Part shown: one piece after another, positions 37,686 through 46,409 of the stretch
Position numbering within the stretch: position 1 is the first letter of the stretch
Layout of the letters: the number at the start of each line of letters is the position of its first letter
DNA from: Candidatus Poriferihabitaceae bacterium
Lineage (GTDB): Bacteria > Pseudomonadota > Gammaproteobacteria > Arenicellales > Poriferihabitantaceae
Direction: 5' to 3'
Length of the DNA: 64,000 nucleotides
Assembly (NCBI GenBank): GCA_965208975.1
Contig: CBDBQH010000003.1
Location: 1,604,792-1,668,791 of the forward strand
Made by a program: the position numbers and the translations under genes
The notes under the pieces: generated by a model
Told to the model about the DNA's origin: nothing
Database searches by the model: none
The model's input: only the letters and a program-made list of their open reading frames with translations

Positions 37686-38768
37686 TCAATCCAGCGCGAA
37701 GTATGCAAGTGTGTCATCCAGCGCGGTCTCGTCATATTGATCCGTGACACAGGCCTGGCCAATCCCCCTGGGTAGCACAAGCCGCAAATTCCCATCGCGG
37801 ACCTTCTTGTCCAGCCTCATTAACTCTTTCAGCTTTTGCGCTGAAAAACCATGGCATGGCTGTGTCGGCAATCGCGCCCGGCCCAGCAATGATTGCAGAC
37901 GCGCCAACTCCTGATCGGAAAAATCACCTTGTATGTTCGACATGAACCCGGCCATCATCATGCCAAGAGCGATCGCTTCGCCATGCAGCCAGCCAGTGTA
38001 CTGTGTCGCTGTTTCGATAGCGTGGCCGAATGTATGCCCCAGATTCAATAACGCCCGAATGCCTGCTTCCTTTTCGTCCTGCGCGACGATATTCGCCTTG
38101 TTGCGGCAGGATTGTTCAATCATGTATTCCAGCGCCCCTTCATCCAGGGCCATCACCCGGTCGATGTGGTCTTCCAGCCATTCGAAGAACGGCAGATCAT
38201 TGATCATCCCGTATTTGACCACTTCCGCGACACCGGAAGAAAACTGCCTCGGTTCCAGGGTGGACAGAACCCTGGCGTCAATCAACACTCCTTGCGGCTG
38301 GTAGAACGCGCCAATCATGTTCTTTCCCTGCGGATGATTGACCGCGGTTTTGCCACCAACGGATGAGTCGACCTGGGAAAGCAATGTCGTCGGTATCTGG
38401 ATGAACGGGACACCCCGTTGATAGCAGGCGGCGGCGAATCCGGCTATATCGCCTACCACTCCTCCCCCCAATGCGATTACTGTGCCCGAGCGGTCCAGCG
38501 GAACCGCAATCATCCGGTCAAAAATCTCTTCCGCAGTCTGCAACGTCTTGACGCTTTCTCCATCCTTGAGAATCATTTGCCCGACCGACTTGCCAGCCAG
38601 ACTGTTCGTTATTTTATCCAGGTAAAGCGGGGCCACCACTTCATTGGTAATAATAAAAACCTGCTGACCGCCAATCCATGGTCGCAACTGTCCGTGGTCA
38701 TCCAGTATGCCGGGAGCAATCCGGATGTCGTAACTCCGGTCACCCAGATCAACATGAACGGCTTTCAT
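37686..38768 (-). CDS. aroB: 3-dehydroquinate synthase
   Basis: The start at MKAVHVDLGDRSYDIRI (38768) lies 2 nt after the aroK stop. The upstream 68-aa extension of the ORF track is unlikely to be coding. Confidence 0.93.
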   Translation of the reverse strand: MKAVHVDLGDRSYDIRIAPGILDDHGQLRPWIGGQQVFIITNEVVAPLYLDKITNSLAGKSVGQMILKDGESVKTLQTAEEIFDRMIAVPLDRSGTVIALGGGVVGDIAGFAAACYQRGVPFIQIPTTLLSQVDSSVGGKTAVNHPQGKNMIGAFYQPQGVLIDARVLSTLEPRQFSSGVAEVVKYGMINDLPFFEWLEDHIDRVMALDEGALEYMIEQSCRNKANIVAQDEKEAGIRALLNLGHTFGHAIETATQYTGWLHGEAIALGMMMAGFMSNIQGDFSDQELARLQSLLGRARLPTQPCHGFSAQKLKELMRLDKKVRDGNLRLVLPRGIGQACVTDQYDETALDDTLAYFALD

Positions 38769-38770
38769 GA

Positions 38771-39292
38771 TTATTCGCTCGCTGACAGATTGCGAACCCA
38801 CTTCGCAATCTTGCGGGCGGTGCGATTCGCCGCTTCCGAGGCCACCTCGACAATCAAATCCGCTTGCGCGTCGTATAGTGGTTCGCGTTCTTTCATCAAC
38901 TCGGCGATTCTGGCCCGGGGGGCGGAGGTTTGCAGCAGGGGGCGATTCTGGCAATTCTCCAGTCTCGACCACAAAATGTCCACTGAGGCTTTAAGATAAA
39001 CCACTTGTCCATGCTGGCGCATCAGTTTTCGATTCGATTCACTCAGAATAATGCCGCCTCCGGTGGAAATGACGGCCCGGGCGCCATGGCTGATCTCTTC
39101 AAATAATCGGCTTTCCCGCTTGCGGAATCCCGCTTCTCCTTCTATCTCAAAGATATGGCTGATGGAAACTCCTGTTCTCTTTTCGATCATTTGATCTGTA
39201 TCAATGAAGTTCATATCCAGAGACCGGGCCAGACCTCTACCCACGGTGGTCTTTCCCGCGCCAGGCAAGCCAATCAGATAAATATTCTCCAT
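38771..39292 (-). CDS. aroK: Shikimate kinase
   Basis: MENIYLIGLPGAGKTTVGRGLA. The start at 39292 is preferred over the longer ORF. Confidence 0.92.
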   Translation of the reverse strand: MENIYLIGLPGAGKTTVGRGLARSLDMNFIDTDQMIEKRTGVSISHIFEIEGEAGFRKRESRLFEEISHGARAVISTGGGIILSESNRKLMRQHGQVVYLKASVDILWSRLENCQNRPLLQTSAPRARIAELMKEREPLYDAQADLIVEVASEAANRTARKIAKWVRNLSASE

Positions 39293-39420
39293 AACGGCTA
39301 TAATAAACCTTAAAACCGCCCTTTTGAAAGCAGTTTTGTCCATGATATTTCGGGTAAAAGACGCGATTTCAAAGACTTGCATCTAAAGGGATCATCAACC
39401 GTCACTCTTATTCCTGATTA

Positions 39421-41838
39421 TTGTCCGTGCCAATCAGATTTCTGGGAAAAATTGTCCTGAAACTCATCTCGATCGGATTGGTTTTCTCCTTCGCCATGGC
39501 GACCGGGCTGGCTCTTTACGCTGCCTCACTGCTGCCTGGCCTGCCGTCCGTCGATGAGATTCGACAAATCCCCCTGAATATCCCCCTTCGAATTTACAGT
39601 TCCGACCAGAAACTGATCGCCGAATACGGCGAAGAAAGACGTATCCCCGTCACCCTGGATGAAACTCCGCCACTTCTGATAGATGCCCTGCTGGTGACCG
39701 AGGATGACCAGTTCTACCATCATACCGGAGTGGACTTCCCGGGTCTGGCCCGTGCCGCGATCAGCAATTTCGTGACTCGTTCACGCAGCCAGGGCGCCAG
39801 CACAATCACGATGCAGGTGGCGCGAAATTTCTTCCTGGATCCAGAGAAAACCTATACCCGGAAGTTAAAGGAAATGCTGCTGGCATTCAAGCTGGAGCGG
39901 GCTTTGACCAAAGACGAAATTCTGGAGCTCTATCTCAACAAGGTTTTCCTCGGTTACCGCTCTTACGGGTTTGCCGCGGCGGCGCAGATCTATTATGGCG
40001 TTAGTCTTGAGGAACTCAGCCTGCCGGAAATCTGCATGCTGGCCGGCTTGCCCAAAGCCCCTTCCAGAGATAACCCGATAGCCAACCCGGAACGGGCCAG
40101 GGAAAGACGCGCCCATGTTTTGAACCGGCTGTATGAACTCGGCAGAATCGACAAGCTCAGCCTGGAAACTGCCAGCAAGGCGCCCATTACAGCCCGGCTT
40201 CATGTCGCTGATGTTGATTTCCAGGCGCCTTATGTGTCAGAAATGGCGAGACGTCTGCTGTTCGAGCGGATGGGCGAGGACGTTTATCGGAAGGGGTTGA
40301 AGGTCACCGTCACCGTACACAGCGAGTACCAGAAAAAAGCGGATGAGGCGCTGCGGCAGGGGCTCATTGATTATACGATGCGCCATGGATTCAAGGGGCC
40401 GATCGGAAAGGTCGATCCGGCCGCATTGCCCGAAGCCGGTTCCTCCACACAGAATCTGCTCGATAATCTGTCACAATACCCGTCCAGCAGGGAGCTGATA
40501 CCGGCTGTCGTGATGACCGTGGGCGATCAGTCGTTCGAGGCATTCAACAGTCGGGGCAATACCGTTACGGTTGAATGGAAAAACATCCAATGGGCCAGAA
40601 AATATATCCGGGTCAACAGTATCGGCCCTGAATTGAATGCGGTCAGCGACATCCTCGCCACCGGCGATGTCATATATTTGCGGGAAGTTGACGAAAATAA
40701 CTGGATGCTTTCCCAGTTGCCGGAGGTGTCCGGCGCTCTGGTCAGCCTGAATCCGCACAGCGGGGCGATCCTGTCGCTGACCGGCGGATTCGATTATTAT
40801 CTGAGCAAGTTCAATCGCGCCACCCAGGCTGAACGACAGCCAGGATCGAATATCAAACCATTCATTTATTCGGCGGCGCTCGACAATGGTTTTACCCCTT
40901 CCAGCAAAGTGAGCGCTGCGCCAGTCGTCGTAGAAGACGATCTGGAAGGTATATGGAAACCGCAAAACTACAGTAAGAAGTTTTTCGGCCCTACCCGGTT
41001 GAGAAGGGCGCTGAGCCTTTCCCTCAATCTGGTATCCGTCCGCCTGCTCCGCGCAATGGGGCTGGATACGACGATCGAACATCTCGCCCGGTTCGGATTC
41101 GACCCGGAAAAAATGCCCCGCAGCCTCTCTCTTGCCCTCGGCAGTACCAGTGTCACGCCACTCAACCTGGTGTCAAGTTTTGCTGTTTTCGCGAATGGAG
41201 GCTTCCGGGTTACGCCCTGGTTGATCGAAAAGATTGAGGATGCCGAAGGCAACCCGGTTTCCTTGCCCGATGCAGTTTGTGAAGACTGTCCGGATGAGTC
41301 CGGGGAAAACAGTCCGGATGAAACCGAATTGCCCGCCCAACCCCCGGAGCGCGCGCTCTCTGCCCAGAATGTCTTTTTGACGCGGAGCATCATGAAGCAG
41401 GTGATGGTGACCGGCACGGGACGCCGGGCACAGTCACTGAACCGTTCTGATCTGGCCGGCAAGACCGGCACTACCAACAATTTTCGCGATGCCTGGTTTT
41501 CCGGATTCAGTCCGGATGTAGTCACCACGGTTTTTGTTGGTTTCGACGAACCCTCCCATCTGGGCAAGCGGGAGTCCGGGGCGAGCGCGGCCCTGCCGAT
41601 CTGGATAGACTTCATGGGTCGCGCGCTACCGGACTACCCGGAGAAACCCGAAGTCATCCCTGAAAACATAACCACCCGCTTTATCAATCGGGAAACCGCA
41701 AAACCGACCTCGCCGGATGATCCGGACGGGTATCTGGAATACTATCTGGCCGGCACAGAACCCGATGATGTGATCGGTCAGGAGAGTGCGAACCCGGATG
41801 CCGGCGACAGCGAGGAGGCAAACGAATCGCTGTTTTGA
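39421..41838 (+). CDS. mrcA: Penicillin-binding protein 1A (bifunctional transglycosylase/transpeptidase)
   Basis: The glycosyltransferase motifs EDDQFYHHTGVD and GASTITMQVARN and the transpeptidase motifs SNIKP and KTGTT are present. The start (TTG 39421 or GTG 39427) is uncertain. Confidence 0.93.
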   Translation: MSVPIRFLGKIVLKLISIGLVFSFAMATGLALYAASLLPGLPSVDEIRQIPLNIPLRIYSSDQKLIAEYGEERRIPVTLDETPPLLIDALLVTEDDQFYHHTGVDFPGLARAAISNFVTRSRSQGASTITMQVARNFFLDPEKTYTRKLKEMLLAFKLERALTKDEILELYLNKVFLGYRSYGFAAAAQIYYGVSLEELSLPEICMLAGLPKAPSRDNPIANPERARERRAHVLNRLYELGRIDKLSLETASKAPITARLHVADVDFQAPYVSEMARRLLFERMGEDVYRKGLKVTVTVHSEYQKKADEALRQGLIDYTMRHGFKGPIGKVDPAALPEAGSSTQNLLDNLSQYPSSRELIPAVVMTVGDQSFEAFNSRGNTVTVEWKNIQWARKYIRVNSIGPELNAVSDILATGDVIYLREVDENNWMLSQLPEVSGALVSLNPHSGAILSLTGGFDYYLSKFNRATQAERQPGSNIKPFIYSAALDNGFTPSSKVSAAPVVVEDDLEGIWKPQNYSKKFFGPTRLRRALSLSLNLVSVRLLRAMGLDTTIEHLARFGFDPEKMPRSLSLALGSTSVTPLNLVSSFAVFANGGFRVTPWLIEKIEDAEGNPVSLPDAVCEDCPDESGENSPDETELPAQPPERALSAQNVFLTRSIMKQVMVTGTGRRAQSLNRSDLAGKTGTTNNFRDAWFSGFSPDVVTTVFVGFDEPSHLGKRESGASAALPIWIDFMGRALPDYPEKPEVIPENITTRFINRETAKPTSPDDPDGYLEYYLAGTEPDDVIGQESANPDAGDSEEANESLF

Positions 41839-41975
41839 CGGTGCAATTTGACAACCATGCTCCGGGCGGGTTAGACTGGCGCCTTCAAATATGGATAATC
41901 TTTCAAGGGGATGGTTAGTAAGAGGTTGCTTGGGATACACTGACTGCACTGCATACCACTAACACTCGAGCATCT

Positions 41976-42455
41976 ATGGAAACCCCATACGACAGTCGGC
42001 AGATCGCCAATCGCCTGATCCGGATATCGAATCAGTATGGCATGCCCATGTCGATTATGCGTGTACTCAAACTCGCCTATCTGGTACATGGCTGGACCTT
42101 GGCGCTCATTGAGAAACCTTTAGTCAACGATTATGTTCAGGCATGGAAGTACGGCCCTGTTATCCCAAGCATTTACTATGCCTTCCGTCCGTATGGAATA
42201 TACGATCTCAAACCGATTCCGCTTGTTCAGGAGGATGATATGGATGACGAGATGGATAGCTTGATGGTATCCGTCTACGGTCTGTATGACCATCTCTCCG
42301 CAAACCAGTTATCGGCTTTGACACATATCAAGGGCGGCCCCTGGCACACCGTATATGAGCGCGGGAAACGAGGAGTTATTATCCCTAACGAATTGATTGC
42401 AGAGCACTTCAAAGACAAGCTGGAACGATCAGGAAATGGTGACACCACCCACTAG
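41976..42455 (+). CDS. Panacea (DUF4065, GepA/SocA-like) domain protein, putative antitoxin
   Basis: SIMRVLKLAYLVHGWTLALIEKPLVNDYVQAWKYGPVIPSIYYAF fits the DUF4065 core (KL.YL..g..l......pl....f.AW.yGPV). This is from memory and was not searched. Confidence 0.65.
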   Translation: METPYDSRQIANRLIRISNQYGMPMSIMRVLKLAYLVHGWTLALIEKPLVNDYVQAWKYGPVIPSIYYAFRPYGIYDLKPIPLVQEDDMDDEMDSLMVSVYGLYDHLSANQLSALTHIKGGPWHTVYERGKRGVIIPNELIAEHFKDKLERSGNGDTTH

Positions 42456-42789
42456 TGACCCGGATATTGCAGCCCTCGACGTGGATGCAATTCGGGAGCT
42501 GAACCCGCTAGACAAACACCACATGAGGCTACGATGGGCAGCCATCTCCGTTGCAATCCTCACCATTATTGCAGCAGGTATCCTGAAAGTATGTATCCTG
42601 CGTTACTCCAATCTTTGGCAGAGTATGGCGGATGCTTTCGTTTTTTTAGCCATTGCGCCGATTGTATGTATCACTATTATCGTGACCTTCATCCTGATTG
42701 GATCATTCAGGAAATCAGGAGATGCTGAAATGAATCTGACTGGCGCCGCGCGGCTGGCTGGTCAAACATTGAGAGGGACACCGGAATAA
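42436..42789 (+). CDS. Small two-TM membrane protein overlapping the Panacea-domain gene; candidate toxin partner
   Basis: The hydrophobic segments are WAAISVAILTIIAAGILKVCIL and AFVFLAIAPIVCITIIVTFILIG. It overlaps the upstream stop by 20 nt. The start could be 42397, 42436 or 42523. Confidence 0.5.
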   Translation: MVTPPTSDPDIAALDVDAIRELNPLDKHHMRLRWAAISVAILTIIAAGILKVCILRYSNLWQSMADAFVFLAIAPIVCITIIVTFILIGSFRKSGDAEMNLTGAARLAGQTLRGTPE

Positions 42790-42796
42790 CAGAAGT

Positions 42797-43063
42797 TCAC
42801 GCTAATGTTGGTAATAGTATGGTATACGAAAGTTTCCGCTTTAATTTGTCCGGTAAAGTTATTGCCGTCAGCATCTCATCACTTTTTGACGACAATACGG
42901 CCTCTTGGGTCGTGAGTGGTGAAAGCATGATCGCCGGGTTGGGAATACCCTGCAACAAACCATCGTAGCGCGCCAACTCCGCATTCGCATCTCCAATCCC
43001 CGTAATCAGGCTTTTATAATCCAGGTTTCGAACCGGAAGTTCATCCACGATATAAGGCTTCAT
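42797..43063 (-). pseudogene. Fic-family protein fragment (Fic_N region only)
   Basis: LPVRNLDYKSLITGIGDANAELARYDGLLQGIPNPAIMLSPLTTQEAVLSSK matches the Fic N-terminal domain up to the EAxxSSxIEG motif, after which the sequence is unrelated. No HPFx(D/E)GNGR core is present. Confidence 0.6.
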
Positions 43064-43134
43064 CCGGTTTCCCCTGGTTTTATTTTTTGCATATCGCTTC
43101 TCGTAATCCTGTATTTACCATTTTTGTTGAGTCT

Positions 43135-43200
43135 CTGGCTGCAACAAGATCGTTTGTTGCAGCCAGATTCGATTATACGCGCAACAAGATCGTTTGTTGC
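43135..43200. repeat. Two copies of the hairpin gcaacaa-gatcgt-ttgttgc (the first extends to a 13-bp stem at 43135..43166; the second is at 43181..43200); possible terminator of the DUF1244 gene
   Basis: ctggctgcaacaagatcgtttgttgcagccag is a perfect inverted repeat lying 20-80 nt downstream of the minus-strand stop at 43219. No clear U-tract follows. Confidence 0.45.
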
Positions 43201-43218
43201 ACTTGCAGACTCCACAAA

Positions 43219-43539
43219 TCATTCAGTCGCCTTTTTCTGACTTTCCTCGTACTTTCCCATCTGCTCTCGCGTGGCTTTTTGCTGATAAGTGGCCTTGTAT
43301 TCGTTGTACGGCATGCCGTAGATGATTTCCCGCGCCTGATCGTAGTCGAGCTCAATACCCTGTTCCCGGGCGGCGCTCATGTACCATTTGGAGAAACAGT
43401 TGCGGCAAAAATAGGCCAGATTCATCAGGTCGATATTCTGCACCTCCGGATTCTTACGCAAGTGGTTGATCATTTTCCTGAAGACCGCCGCTTCAATGTG
43501 AGTACTCTGGAGATCATTTATTTCCGGTAATTCAGTCAT
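43219..43539 (-). CDS. DUF1244 domain protein
   Basis: VQNIDLMNLAYFCRNCFSKWY...IIYGMPYNEYK. Confidence 0.7.
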   Translation of the reverse strand: MTELPEINDLQSTHIEAAVFRKMINHLRKNPEVQNIDLMNLAYFCRNCFSKWYMSAAREQGIELDYDQAREIIYGMPYNEYKATYQQKATREQMGKYEESQKKATE

Positions 43540-43599
43540 GGTTCATTCTCTGTCAATAATATGATTGGCCTTTTGCTATACTCTACCTGTAGCCAAAAC

Positions 43600-44619
43600 A
43601 TGTCAACCATGCTCGCCATGCCCATCCCGAAACCCGAAATCGACGCAGTCAGTCACGCGCGCTCTGTCATTGAGATTGAGGCCGCCGCCGTGCTGGCCCT
43701 GCCGGAGCGCCTGGACAGCGGATTTGGCAAGGCATGCGACATGATACTCCGGTGTGAGGGACGGGTTATCGTGATCGGCATGGGTAAATCAGGGCATATC
43801 GGCGGCAAGATTGCAGCCACTCTGGCGAGCACCGGAACCCCGGCCTTTTTCCTGCATCCGGGAGAAGCCAGTCATGGCGACCTGGGAATGCTGACCACTC
43901 GCGACCTGGCTATCGTTATCTCCAATTCAGGAGAAACCGTGGAGGTGGTTTCGATCATTCCGATTGTCAAACGACTCGGAGTCAAACTGATTGCGATGAC
44001 CGGCAATCCGGTCTCGACACTGGGGCGTCAATCCGATGCCCATCTGGATGTCGGCGTGGAGCGGGAAGCATGCCCGCACAATCTTGCGCCAACCGCGAGT
44101 ACAACCGCGACTCTGGTTATGGGCGATGCGCTGGCGGTGGCGGTGCAGAAACTGCGCGGATTTTCAGTCCAGGATTTTGCCCGAACCCATCCCGGCGGCA
44201 TGCTGGGCAAGCGTTTGTTGCTGTACGCCCGCGACCTGATGCATACGGGCGATGAGCTTCCCCTGGTCCGGGAGCAGTCAACCATGGACAGGCTATTGCT
44301 CGAAATGTCCTCCAAATCATTAGGCATGGTCGGTGTAGTTGACCAGGACAACCGCTTACTGGGTATGTTCACCGATGGGGATTTGCGGCGAGCGCTGGAA
44401 AAAGAGGTCAATGTGTACCAGAGTAAGGCGGGTGATTTGATGACCAGAGACCCGTTTACCATCAGCCCGGATACACTGGCGGAGGAAATTGTCAAAACCA
44501 TGCGGGATTTTGCGCAACAAGGCCCCCATGCAATCAATGGCCTGTTCGTGGTGGACGAAAACCATCAGGTGGCAGGAGCGCTGAACACCCATGACCTGCT
44601 GCGTAGTGGCGTAATATAA
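43600..44619 (+). CDS. kdsD: Arabinose-5-phosphate isomerase (SIS + 2 CBS)
   Basis: GMGKSGHIGGKIAATLASTGTPAFFLHPGEASHGDLGM. The exact start (43600, 43609 or 43618) is uncertain. Confidence 0.9.
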   Translation: MSTMLAMPIPKPEIDAVSHARSVIEIEAAAVLALPERLDSGFGKACDMILRCEGRVIVIGMGKSGHIGGKIAATLASTGTPAFFLHPGEASHGDLGMLTTRDLAIVISNSGETVEVVSIIPIVKRLGVKLIAMTGNPVSTLGRQSDAHLDVGVEREACPHNLAPTASTTATLVMGDALAVAVQKLRGFSVQDFARTHPGGMLGKRLLLYARDLMHTGDELPLVREQSTMDRLLLEMSSKSLGMVGVVDQDNRLLGMFTDGDLRRALEKEVNVYQSKAGDLMTRDPFTISPDTLAEEIVKTMRDFAQQGPHAINGLFVVDENHQVAGALNTHDLLRSGVI

Positions 44620-44622
44620 TTG

Positions 44623-45066
44623 ATGCGCCCGCTCAGGGAAAATCTGGTGTTGGTCGCAGTACTGGCCGGAGTATTCATCATTTTCTCCCTGTCGTCTGTC
44701 TGGATTCAGTTTGACCTGTTGGGCGAACCGGACAACGCAACAGCCCCCGGAGAGAATGAGCCGGACTATTTTATCGAAAACCTGACTGCAACCACCATCG
44801 GGGAAAACGGAAAGAAATACCGGATCATCGCGGACAGGCTGGTACATTATCCTGTCGCAGGCCGCTCACTGCTGAATAATCCGCAAGTCATACAATATGA
44901 ATCCGACCAACCCCTGAGCCGTACTTATGCGGACCAGGGGTGGATGTATGATGATCAGTCTACTGTTCTCCTGAATGGGAATGTCCGTGTCTCCGATATG
45001 CGGGACGGAGTGGCCCATAGTGTCGCCACATCGGATAAAATGACGATCAACCTGAAAGGCAAATAA
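44623..45066 (+). CDS. lptC: LPS export protein LptC
   Basis: It has an N-terminal TM anchor, the PDYFIENL motif, and sits between kdsD and lptA. Confidence 0.75.
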   Translation: MRPLRENLVLVAVLAGVFIIFSLSSVWIQFDLLGEPDNATAPGENEPDYFIENLTATTIGENGKKYRIIADRLVHYPVAGRSLLNNPQVIQYESDQPLSRTYADQGWMYDDQSTVLLNGNVRVSDMRDGVAHSVATSDKMTINLKGK

Positions 45067-45085
45067 TGAAAAGGGGTGAAAACGA

Positions 45086-45631
45086 ATGCTGAACCGTACC
45101 ATTGCCGGATTCCTGTTGGGCCTGTCGGGTCTGCTGGCTCAGGCAGTCTGGGCGCTGGATGACGACACCAGTCAGCCCGCCTTCCTGGATGCGGATGACA
45201 TGGAAATTGATTTCACCAAAGGGGTGCGGATCTATCGGGGCAATGTAGTATTCACTCAGGGCAGCATGCGCCTGAATTGCGATAAACTGGTGACTTATCT
45301 GGATGACACCCAGACATTGGAAGAGGCCATTTGCACGGGTGAACCGGCGCGCTTCAAACAACGGCTTCAGGACCAGGATACAGATATGAAGTCCACGGCG
45401 CTGAAAATTACGCTGAATCATGGGAACGACCGGTTGCTACTGGAGAGCCAGGCCCGGATTGAACAGGGGGACTCAGTCATTACCGGGGATAAGGTCAACT
45501 ACAACCTGGCGACCAGGAAGGCGAAAATAACCGGAAATCCTCAAGATGCGCAATCCGGCAGCGACAGTGAATCACCAGACGGCTCCAGGGTTCGGGTAAT
45601 TATCCAGCCCGGGAAAAAGGAAACCGAGTGA
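45086..45631 (+). CDS. lptA: LPS transport periplasmic protein LptA
   Basis: A signal peptide followed by the OstA-like segment DADDMEID...YRGNVVFTQGSMRLNCDKL. Confidence 0.85.
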   Translation: MLNRTIAGFLLGLSGLLAQAVWALDDDTSQPAFLDADDMEIDFTKGVRIYRGNVVFTQGSMRLNCDKLVTYLDDTQTLEEAICTGEPARFKQRLQDQDTDMKSTALKITLNHGNDRLLLESQARIEQGDSVITGDKVNYNLATRKAKITGNPQDAQSGSDSESPDGSRVRVIIQPGKKETE

Positions 45632-45683
45632 GCCTGCCACACAAACTGCCTCCCGAAATGATTACGGGACGGTTTGCCATCCC

Positions 45684-46409
45684 ATGAGAACACTGACTGC
45701 CACAGGGCTGAAAAAGAAATACCGGCAGGTTACGGTTGTCAATGGCATTGACCTGACGGTATCTGACTGCGAAGTAGTCGGCTTGCTGGGCGCGAACGGA
45801 GCGGGTAAAACAACCAGCTTCAATATGGTGGTCGGGCTGGTGCAATGTGATGAGGGGGTAATCCGTCTGGATGATGAAGATATTACCCGCCTGCCCATGC
45901 ACGAACGGGCGCGAAGAGGGATTGGCTATCTACCCCAGGAACACTCGGTATTCAGGAAGCTGACCACTGAACAGAATCTGCTCGCGGTACTCGAAATATC
46001 AGGGAAATACAGCAAGGAAGAGCAACACTGGATCAGCGGGAAGCTTCTTGAGGAATTCGGCATTCTGGGCCTCAGGGACAAGCAGACCATTCAATTATCA
46101 GGCGGTGAACAGCGACGAGTGGAAATCGCCCGGGCGCTTGCTCTTGAACCCAAATTCATTCTGCTGGATGAGCCTTTCGCCGGGATTGATCCGATCGCGG
46201 TTCAGGATGTCCGACATATCATCCAATTGCTCAAGGAAAAGGGAATCGGTGTGTTGATCACCGACCATAATGTCCGCGAGACTCTCGGCATCTGTGATCG
46301 GGCATACCTGATGCACCGGGGACAAGCGCTGGTTTCCGGGCTGCCTTCCGTCATCATGGCCGATGAAAGGGCTCGGGCTGTCTATCTTGGCCAGGACTTC
46401 AAGATGTGA
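45684..46409 (+). CDS. lptB: LPS export ABC transporter ATPase LptB
   Basis: GANGAGKTT, LSGGEQRRVEIARAL and LLDEPFAGIDP motifs are present. Confidence 0.94.
   Translation: MRTLTATGLKKKYRQVTVVNGIDLTVSDCEVVGLLGANGAGKTTSFNMVVGLVQCDEGVIRLDDEDITRLPMHERARRGIGYLPQEHSVFRKLTTEQNLLAVLEISGKYSKEEQHWISGKLLEEFGILGLRDKQTIQLSGGEQRRVEIARALALEPKFILLDEPFAGIDPIAVQDVRHIIQLLKEKGIGVLITDHNVRETLGICDRAYLMHRGQALVSGLPSVIMADERARAVYLGQDFKM

Follow-up and report, generated by a model that had tools for sequence, protein, structure and literature searches.

A candidate PanAT toxin–antitoxin cassette with a two-helix membrane protein in a Candidatus Poriferihabitaceae bacterium

A 64,000-nt stretch of the genome of a Candidatus Poriferihabitaceae bacterium (hereafter the window, in which all plain coordinates are given) contains a gene for a stand-alone Panacea (DUF4065) protein, panA, that overlaps a gene for a small protein with two transmembrane (TM) helices, the panT candidate. 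We consider that the two genes form a PanAT toxin–antitoxin (TA) cassette with a probable membrane-depolarising toxin, and we give this reading a probability of about 75%. The toxicity of the TM protein, its membrane target, and its direct neutralisation by PanA are what we infer from the architecture of the pair, from its linkage in other genomes, and from analogy with published systems. Related loci in other genomes and metagenomes are designated L001, L002, and so on.

The panA gene and the overlapping membrane-protein gene

The panA product matched the Pfam model SocA_Panacea (PF13274) over residues 31–124 with 57.8 bits (cut-off 25.7; E = 2.6e-15), and it contains the motifs KLAYLVHGW and AWKYGPV. 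An earlier note on this DNA had described a 159-aa DUF4065 protein with both motifs and had proposed a hidden Markov model (HMM) search for the domain; the description is borne out by this match, which lies above the curated threshold. Within its own genome (2.93 Mb), panA is the only PF13274 gene, and a search of the PDB sequences with a PanA profile gave no match. Compared with four relatives, the ratio of nonsynonymous to synonymous substitution rates (dN/dS) was 0.12–0.22 for panA and 0.16–0.23 for the TM gene; the codons in the overlap of the two genes were left out of this calculation. Because of these low ratios, and because many genomes contain the gene pair, the TM open reading frame (ORF) can be taken as a real gene under purifying selection and not as a chance ORF.

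The reading frame of the TM protein is open from a TTG at 42397, which would give an overlap of 59 nt with panA, and contains an in-frame ATG at 42436, which gives an overlap of 20 nt; both versions end at 42789. The earlier note had left the overlap at 20–59 nt. All seven aligned homologues begin at the position of the ATG, and upstream of it no conservation is seen. The TTG start, with a product of 130 aa, was therefore rejected, and the product is 117 aa in length with a 20-nt overlap. Hydropathy analysis placed the hydrophobic segments at about residues 35–56 and 68–91, after an N-terminus with six acidic and four basic residues. An AlphaFold2 model built from a 61-sequence alignment was a helical hairpin with helices at residues 9–56, 62–92, and 101–112 (mean pLDDT, 77), so that both methods agree with the charged N-terminus and two strong TM helices noticed previously. 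The basic residues are grouped before TM1 (K27, R31, and R33) and after TM2 (R92 and K93), with none in the loop between the helices, which implies by the positive-inside rule that both termini would be cytoplasmic. In the second helix, we found the conserved motif AI(A/S)PIxSIT...LIGxFR.

The TM protein had no significant match in Pfam, NCBIfam, PHROGs, or PADLOC. When 1.84 billion representative sequences were searched exhaustively with a profile (E ≤ 1e-3), the family was found to comprise 105 clusters at 50% identity, all with lengths of 66–173 aa except one of 433 aa.

The linkage of the two genes was examined from both sides. A word-indexed search of 5.8 billion proteins identified six close homologues of the TM protein (59–91% identity). 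Five of them were looked up, and on every encoding contig a 159-aa Panacea gene lay immediately upstream, with an overlap of 17–20 nt. The same arrangement was found for all four remote members of the family that were looked up (25–31% identity), and overall a Panacea gene was immediately upstream in 10 of 10 homologues, at identities down to 25%. From the antitoxin side, we surveyed 80 PanA loci, the best ones among species-representative genomes, and assigned a downstream ORF to the TM family when its score with the family HMM reached 25 bits. Such an ORF was immediately downstream of panA in 27 of these 80 loci, and the 27 include nearly all PanA proteins that are at least ~45% identical to that of the window. 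Among the remaining best loci, about 20 with more distant PanA proteins have a different small TM protein downstream. Thus, the co-occurrence in other genomes that the earlier note had named as a check was found in both directions, and the note's reading of the TM protein as the cognate toxin is supported at the level of sequence.

The two proteins also diverge together. When 23 intact pairs were compared with one another, the identity between PanA proteins co-varied with that between their TM proteins (Spearman rho, 0.88), and 2000 Mantel permutations never reached this value. Evolution is faster in the TM protein, whose mean identity is 34%, versus 50% for PanA. From this co-variation, it follows that the two genes are inherited, and diverge, as one unit.

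Comparison with published PanAT systems and the explanations weighed

The PanAT systems were defined by Kurata et al. (2022, PNAS, PMC8832971), who validated three membrane toxins, those of E. coli (cluster T3), of Bartonella apis (T12), and of Helicobacter. In Dataset S1 of that study, the proteins WP_058319231.1 and WP_058319232.1 of Thalassobius (Thalassovita) mediterraneus are listed as the predicted cluster pT26/T24. The TM ORF of L051, a locus of the same type strain, is identical in sequence to WP_058319232.1. We used two profiles of the TM family, one built from 61 sequences (A5) and one from seven sequences of close relatives, and measured the noise level of the HMM searches on 16,799 ORFs of the bacterium's own genome, where the top background scores were 11.4–13.4 bits. 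WP_058319232.1 scored 86 bits with the 61-sequence profile; with the seven-sequence profile, its score was 22 bits (E = 4.5e-7, with 72 sequences searched). Intermediate sequences such as P0113 link the two sides: P0113 matched the narrow profile with an E value of 6e-14 when the whole library was searched, and its score to T24 was 42 bits. In a pairwise BLAST comparison, the window protein and the T24 member aligned in TM2 only (42% identity over 26 residues).

These results place the window TM protein in a superfamily that includes T24, by profile homology. The earlier note had recognised no named family in its sequence. This stands for Pfam and NCBIfam, in which the family is unnamed, but not entirely for the literature, because by profile the family includes a protein of the predicted T24 cluster. 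On sequence grounds, we regard the cassette as an intact new member of PanAT, whose toxin family was predicted before and is matched by no Pfam, NCBIfam, PHROGs, or PADLOC model.

The pair in T. mediterraneus resembles that of the window in several respects: a Panacea antitoxin gene is followed by an overlapping toxin gene, the PanA proteins are ~43% identical, and in the toxin a charged N-terminus precedes two TM helices, the TM2 motif being (A/V)P(I/V)VSI(T/S)...G(S/V)FR with an acidic tail after it. They differ in length, the T24 member being 143 aa and the window protein shorter, and in host range. The eight listed T24 members are all from Alphaproteobacteria, whereas the metagenome-assembled genomes that contain the branch of the window are gammaproteobacterial (Arenicellales) or belong to the Nitrosomonadaceae.

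The validated T3 pair of E. coli (WP_000287252.1 and WP_000019185.1) has a membrane-depolarising, pore-forming toxin. We compared T3 through the annotated PanA/PanT pair of Escherichia phage PhiR47_1, in which the genes have the 22-nt spacing of the E. coli pair. The PanA of PhiR47_1, which is paired with a T3-type PanT, is 40% identical to the window PanA over 150 residues. The T3 toxin likewise has a charged N-terminal region, two C-terminal TM helices that end in G-x-F-K/R, and an acidic tail; however, it is 182 aa long with a long N-terminal region, and its gene is separated from panA by 22 nt instead of overlapping it. An iterative HMM search seemed to link T3 to the TM family (40 bits). 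As proof of homology, this link was rejected, because the T3 sequence had entered the search at the noise level of 12.5 bits, and it scored 13.8 bits when it was excluded.

The validated T12 (D11) PanT:PanA pair of Bartonella apis/choladocola (PMC10440598) likewise consists of a small membrane toxin and a stand-alone Panacea antitoxin. In the next-closest PanA clade, which is 35–43% identical to the window PanA, the antitoxin is paired with T12-type toxins, and most of these partners have a single TM segment by a crude hydropathy count, as against two in the window protein. In L036, L038, L043, L056–L066, L069, L072, and L077–L084, a PanA in this range of identity is followed by a different small TM family, whose homologues include D11S_2262 (cluster T12; Aggregatibacter phage S1249) and a protein of Pseudomonas phage vB_Pae_CF183a. 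Neighbouring PanA clades thus differ by a switch of partners.

The following mechanism is proposed. The panA and panT genes would be co-transcribed and translationally coupled through the 20-nt overlap. PanT would enter the inner membrane as a helical hairpin with both termini in the cytoplasm, and free PanT would dissipate the membrane potential or permeabilise the membrane. The Panacea domain of PanA would bind the cytoplasmic acidic N-terminal segment of PanT and hold it inactive, a type II-like direct neutralisation. This last step is modelled on the PanT(D11):PanA pair of Bartonella, for which Ernits et al. (2023, PMC10440598) concluded from an AlphaFold model and mutagenesis that the stand-alone Panacea protein neutralises the membrane toxin via the segment before the TM region. 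The candidate counterparts of Y56 and H120 of that Bartonella PanA would be Y59 and H117 in the window PanA. Kurata et al. (2022, PMC8832971) reported the formation of PanA–PanT complexes, which was taken to indicate direct neutralisation. The probable role of the cassette would lie in abortive-infection defence, in the post-segregational stabilisation of its mobile carrier DNA, or in both.

The decay of the pair in other genomes bears on whether the TM protein is a toxin. In six loci (L015, L016, L020, L022, L027, and L040), an intact panA stands beside a TM gene that is frameshifted, interrupted, truncated, or lost; in L022 (= G029:C1:1121122-1122372), for example, an insertion of ~0.9 kb splits the TM-family gene downstream of an intact panA. 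The opposite pattern, a frameshifted panA, was found once (L007), in an assembly of 7x coverage, and in L045 both genes are broken. The preferential decay of the TM gene is the asymmetry that would be expected if the TM protein is a toxin.

Several points weigh against the interpretation as a working PanAT cassette. All eight T24 entries are marked “notest” in Kurata et al. (2022, PMC8832971), and the TM family has no experimentally tested member. According to the legend of Fig. S4 in the supplementary information of the same study, some TM-bearing PanTs were not neutralised by their own PanA in E. coli, and the architecture alone is therefore no guarantee of a working pair. The HMM scores of T3 (12.5–13.8 bits) equal the background of ORFs in the bacterium's own genome, and a profile–profile comparison with a 28-sequence T3 alignment (hhalign) gave a probability of 54.7% and an E value of 1.2e-4, with both TM helices aligned. 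Homology to T12 was not detected: D11S_2262 scored 9.0 bits against the family HMM and instead matched the other small TM family, the one that follows panA in the more distant loci. The asymmetry of decay is biased, in that most of the loci were found via PanA similarity. Finally, the window copy sits in a decaying islet, in which no intrinsic terminator was detected.

Among the other explanations, the one that survives best differs from ours in the role of the pair and not in its parts: the two genes may form a phage-sensing abortive-infection or exclusion module, in which PanA is a sensor that releases the membrane effector upon infection. Ernits et al. (2023, PMC10440598) proposed Panacea primarily as a sensor domain. 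Prophages of E. coli, Pseudomonas, and Aggregatibacter contain close relatives of PanA, which adjoin immunity or abortive-infection (Abi) genes there, and defence-type neighbours were also found here (a SoFic-like fragment in the window, a HEPN gene in L001, and a restriction–modification system in the transposon of L002). However, no PanAT has a known phage trigger, PanA like the TM protein is matched by no PADLOC model, and the stabilisation of an element explains the carriage by transposons described below equally well. Nothing in the sequence tells the two roles apart; we regard phage sensing as less likely than not.

It is quite improbable that the TM protein is non-toxic, either as a membrane anchor or partner of PanA or because the decay of the islet has left the window copy as an inert remnant. 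The truncation of the adjoining Fic gene, the absence of inverted repeats and a transposase gene around the window copy, the “notest” status of T24, and the broken TM genes in several relatives are consistent with this possibility. On the other hand, both ORFs in the window are full length, and relative to the syntenic orthologue in L001 the dN/dS values are 0.12 for panA and 0.23 for the TM gene (dS, 0.45 and 0.18, respectively). Moreover, the preferential loss of the TM gene with panA kept is predicted for a toxin and not for an anchor. Even less probable is a SocA-like type VI adaptor that delivers the TM protein to a protease rather than sequestering it: the Pfam family takes its name from SocA and PanA aligned with the NCBIfam model SocA_antitoxin (NF047745) over residues 5–150, but the score of 101.4 bits is far under the equivalog cut-off of 190, the partner is not SocB-like (no search was aimed at SocB-like partners), and the PanA–PanT complexes of Kurata et al. 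(2022) and the mutationally tested D11 model of Ernits et al. (2023) favour direct neutralisation.

Carriage of related pairs by IS1595-family transposons

Mobile elements carry the pair in other genomes. The Nitrosomonadaceae genome OZ252054 (L002–L004 and L009–L014) contains six identical copies of a 3,786-bp IS1595-family transposon, one of them at L009:1127-4912. The element is bounded by perfect 25-bp inverted repeats, GGGAATTATATACAATAGTGCCGAA, and carries a 57-aa ORF and genes for an Eco47II-type restriction enzyme, an N6/N4 methyltransferase, and the transposase, together with panA and panT. Perfect 8-bp target-site duplications were found at two copies (TTTAATAA and ATTTATTT). The flanks are reciprocally swapped between two pairs of copies, which indicates recombination between the copies. 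Between the transposase gene and panA, the same inverted repeat occurs a further time in a degenerate inner form (L002:3362-3386 with L002:4428-4452), so that panA–panT alone is enclosed by inverted ends in a cassette-like unit of ~1.09 kb. Near-identical copies of the repeat also occur beside PanA genes in one alphaproteobacterial and one gammaproteobacterial metagenome-assembled genome (L029:3581-3605 and L055:5040-5066).

A second IS1595-family element, of ~4.2 kb, is present in two copies in the Arenicellales genome OZ253563 (L017:2877-7084 and L018). It has 25-bp inverted repeats, GGGAATTATACGGAATAGTTGACAA, and a different 8-bp duplication at each copy (TTTCGTTT and TAAAAAAT), and contains panA, panT, and two transposase genes, its own and a nested one of the DDE_Tnp_1/DUF4372 type. 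Inverted repeats, an 8-bp duplication, and a DDE_Tnp_IS1595 transposase were all found in L002–L004, L009–L014, and L017/L018. More generally, an IS1595 transposase gene lies no more than 4 kb away in 14 of the 27 loci of the TM family, from about eight genomes, and likewise in the metagenome loci L005–L007.

For the window copy itself, we found no IS1595 inverted repeats, either as the full 25-bp repeat over the 64 kb or as its 11-bp core over 38000–46000. The closest IS1595-like transposase genes are elsewhere on the contig of the window, and none flanks the pair. On these grounds, the window copy does not qualify as an IS1595-family transposon, and the presence of IS1595 remnants around it was rejected.

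We tentatively propose, at odds somewhat short of even, that the panAT family is a habitual and integral passenger of IS1595-family transposons, situated just inside one inverted repeat beside the transposase gene and stabilising the transposon as an addiction or defence module, and that the window copy is a stranded cassette of such an element. In our literature search, no paper was found that links IS1595 with Panacea or DUF4065. TA passengers have been described in the Tn3 family (Lima-Mendez et al., 2020, mBio, PMC7157771). As in those transposons, the panAT pairs of the other genomes lie inside the inverted repeats and adjoin the transposase gene; unlike them, the carrier belongs to the IS1595 family and the TA system is PanAT, and the window copy is in no recognisable transposon.

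Genomic setting of the window copy

The features of the region are summarised in Table 1. The promoter-like site stands at the left edge of the DNA that is common to other copies of the module. Its TTAGAC box and the leader that follows are conserved in L001 and L005–L007, and not in more distant copies. A leader RNA element or an operator was considered and rejected, because the ~100-nt leader is conserved among the closest copies only (the window, L001, and L005–L007).

Table 1. Features in and around the panAT pair of the window.
Feature	Coordinates	Strand	Description
mrcA	39421-41838	+	Left neighbour
Promoter-like site	41848-41877	+	Predicted; TTGACA-18 nt-TAGACT, 10/12 consensus matches; ~100 nt upstream of panA
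Transferable panAT module	41850-42793	+	Approximate, ~0.94 kb; from DNA alignments
panA	41976-42455	+	159-aa stand-alone Panacea (DUF4065) protein without extra N-terminal domain; putative antitoxin
panT candidate	42436-42789	+	117 aa; acidic N-terminal region, two TM helices; 20-nt overlap with panA
Fic_N-only ORF	42797-43063	-	88 aa; PF13784, E 1.5e-10, residues 23-60 only; neighbour, outside the pair
DUF1244 gene	43219-43539	-	PF06844, E 3.3e-34

The similarity of the DNA to other copies covers the leader, panA, and panT only, and stops 3–4 nt past the stop codon of panT. The Fic_N-only ORF ends a few nucleotides beyond this module edge, at 42797. It matched the SoFic model of PADLOC over positions 2–60 of 361, and it is a truncated Fic/SoFic-like gene that lacks its 3' part precisely at the point where the panAT module ends; no full-length copy of this Fic gene was found in the genomes of the same genus. 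A blastn search with the transposon of L002 against the bacterium's own genome gave a sole match, at C3:1646763-1647582 (= 41972–42791 in the window), and this genome has the panAT pair in a single copy.

The interval between the stop codons of mrcA and the DUF1244 gene measures 1.38 kb in the window, whereas the two genes are separated by 87–113 nt in two genomes of the same genus. The islet is therefore accessory, as the earlier note had supposed when it described an accessory islet of ~1.4 kb between the two genes beside a Fic fragment. The closest public relatives of this genome are Arenicellales metagenome-assembled genomes, and the panAT pair was found in two of the eight same-genus genomes and in five of the 31 relatives. 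The contents of the interval at 41839–43218 vary within the genus (L097–L103): two genomes have a bacterioferritin gene (bfr) and a Bfd-like gene (bfd), and one has an rve-type integrase gene. In the remaining genomes the interval is rearranged; in the one that also has the panAT pair, pyrG stands beside the DUF1244 gene. In addition, the segment at 43100–43200, in the gap that separates the DUF1244 gene from the Fic fragment, contains a repeated palindrome (ttgttgcagccagattcg... / ...cgcaacaagatcgtttgttgca) with an inverted self-match of 34–36 nt.

For the genome of the window, the pair is an ordinary accessory cassette at a variable intergenic site. For PanAT, the repertoire would gain a large family of membrane proteins with two helices that has no name, and this family supplies intact co-evolving pairs for studying how a stand-alone Panacea protein neutralises a membrane toxin. 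The repeated carriage in active IS1595-family transposons, once together with a restriction–modification system, suggests that TA-assisted persistence of transposons extends beyond Tn3; if habitual carriage is true, IS1595 would follow Tn3 as the second family of transposons in which TA pairs are built in.

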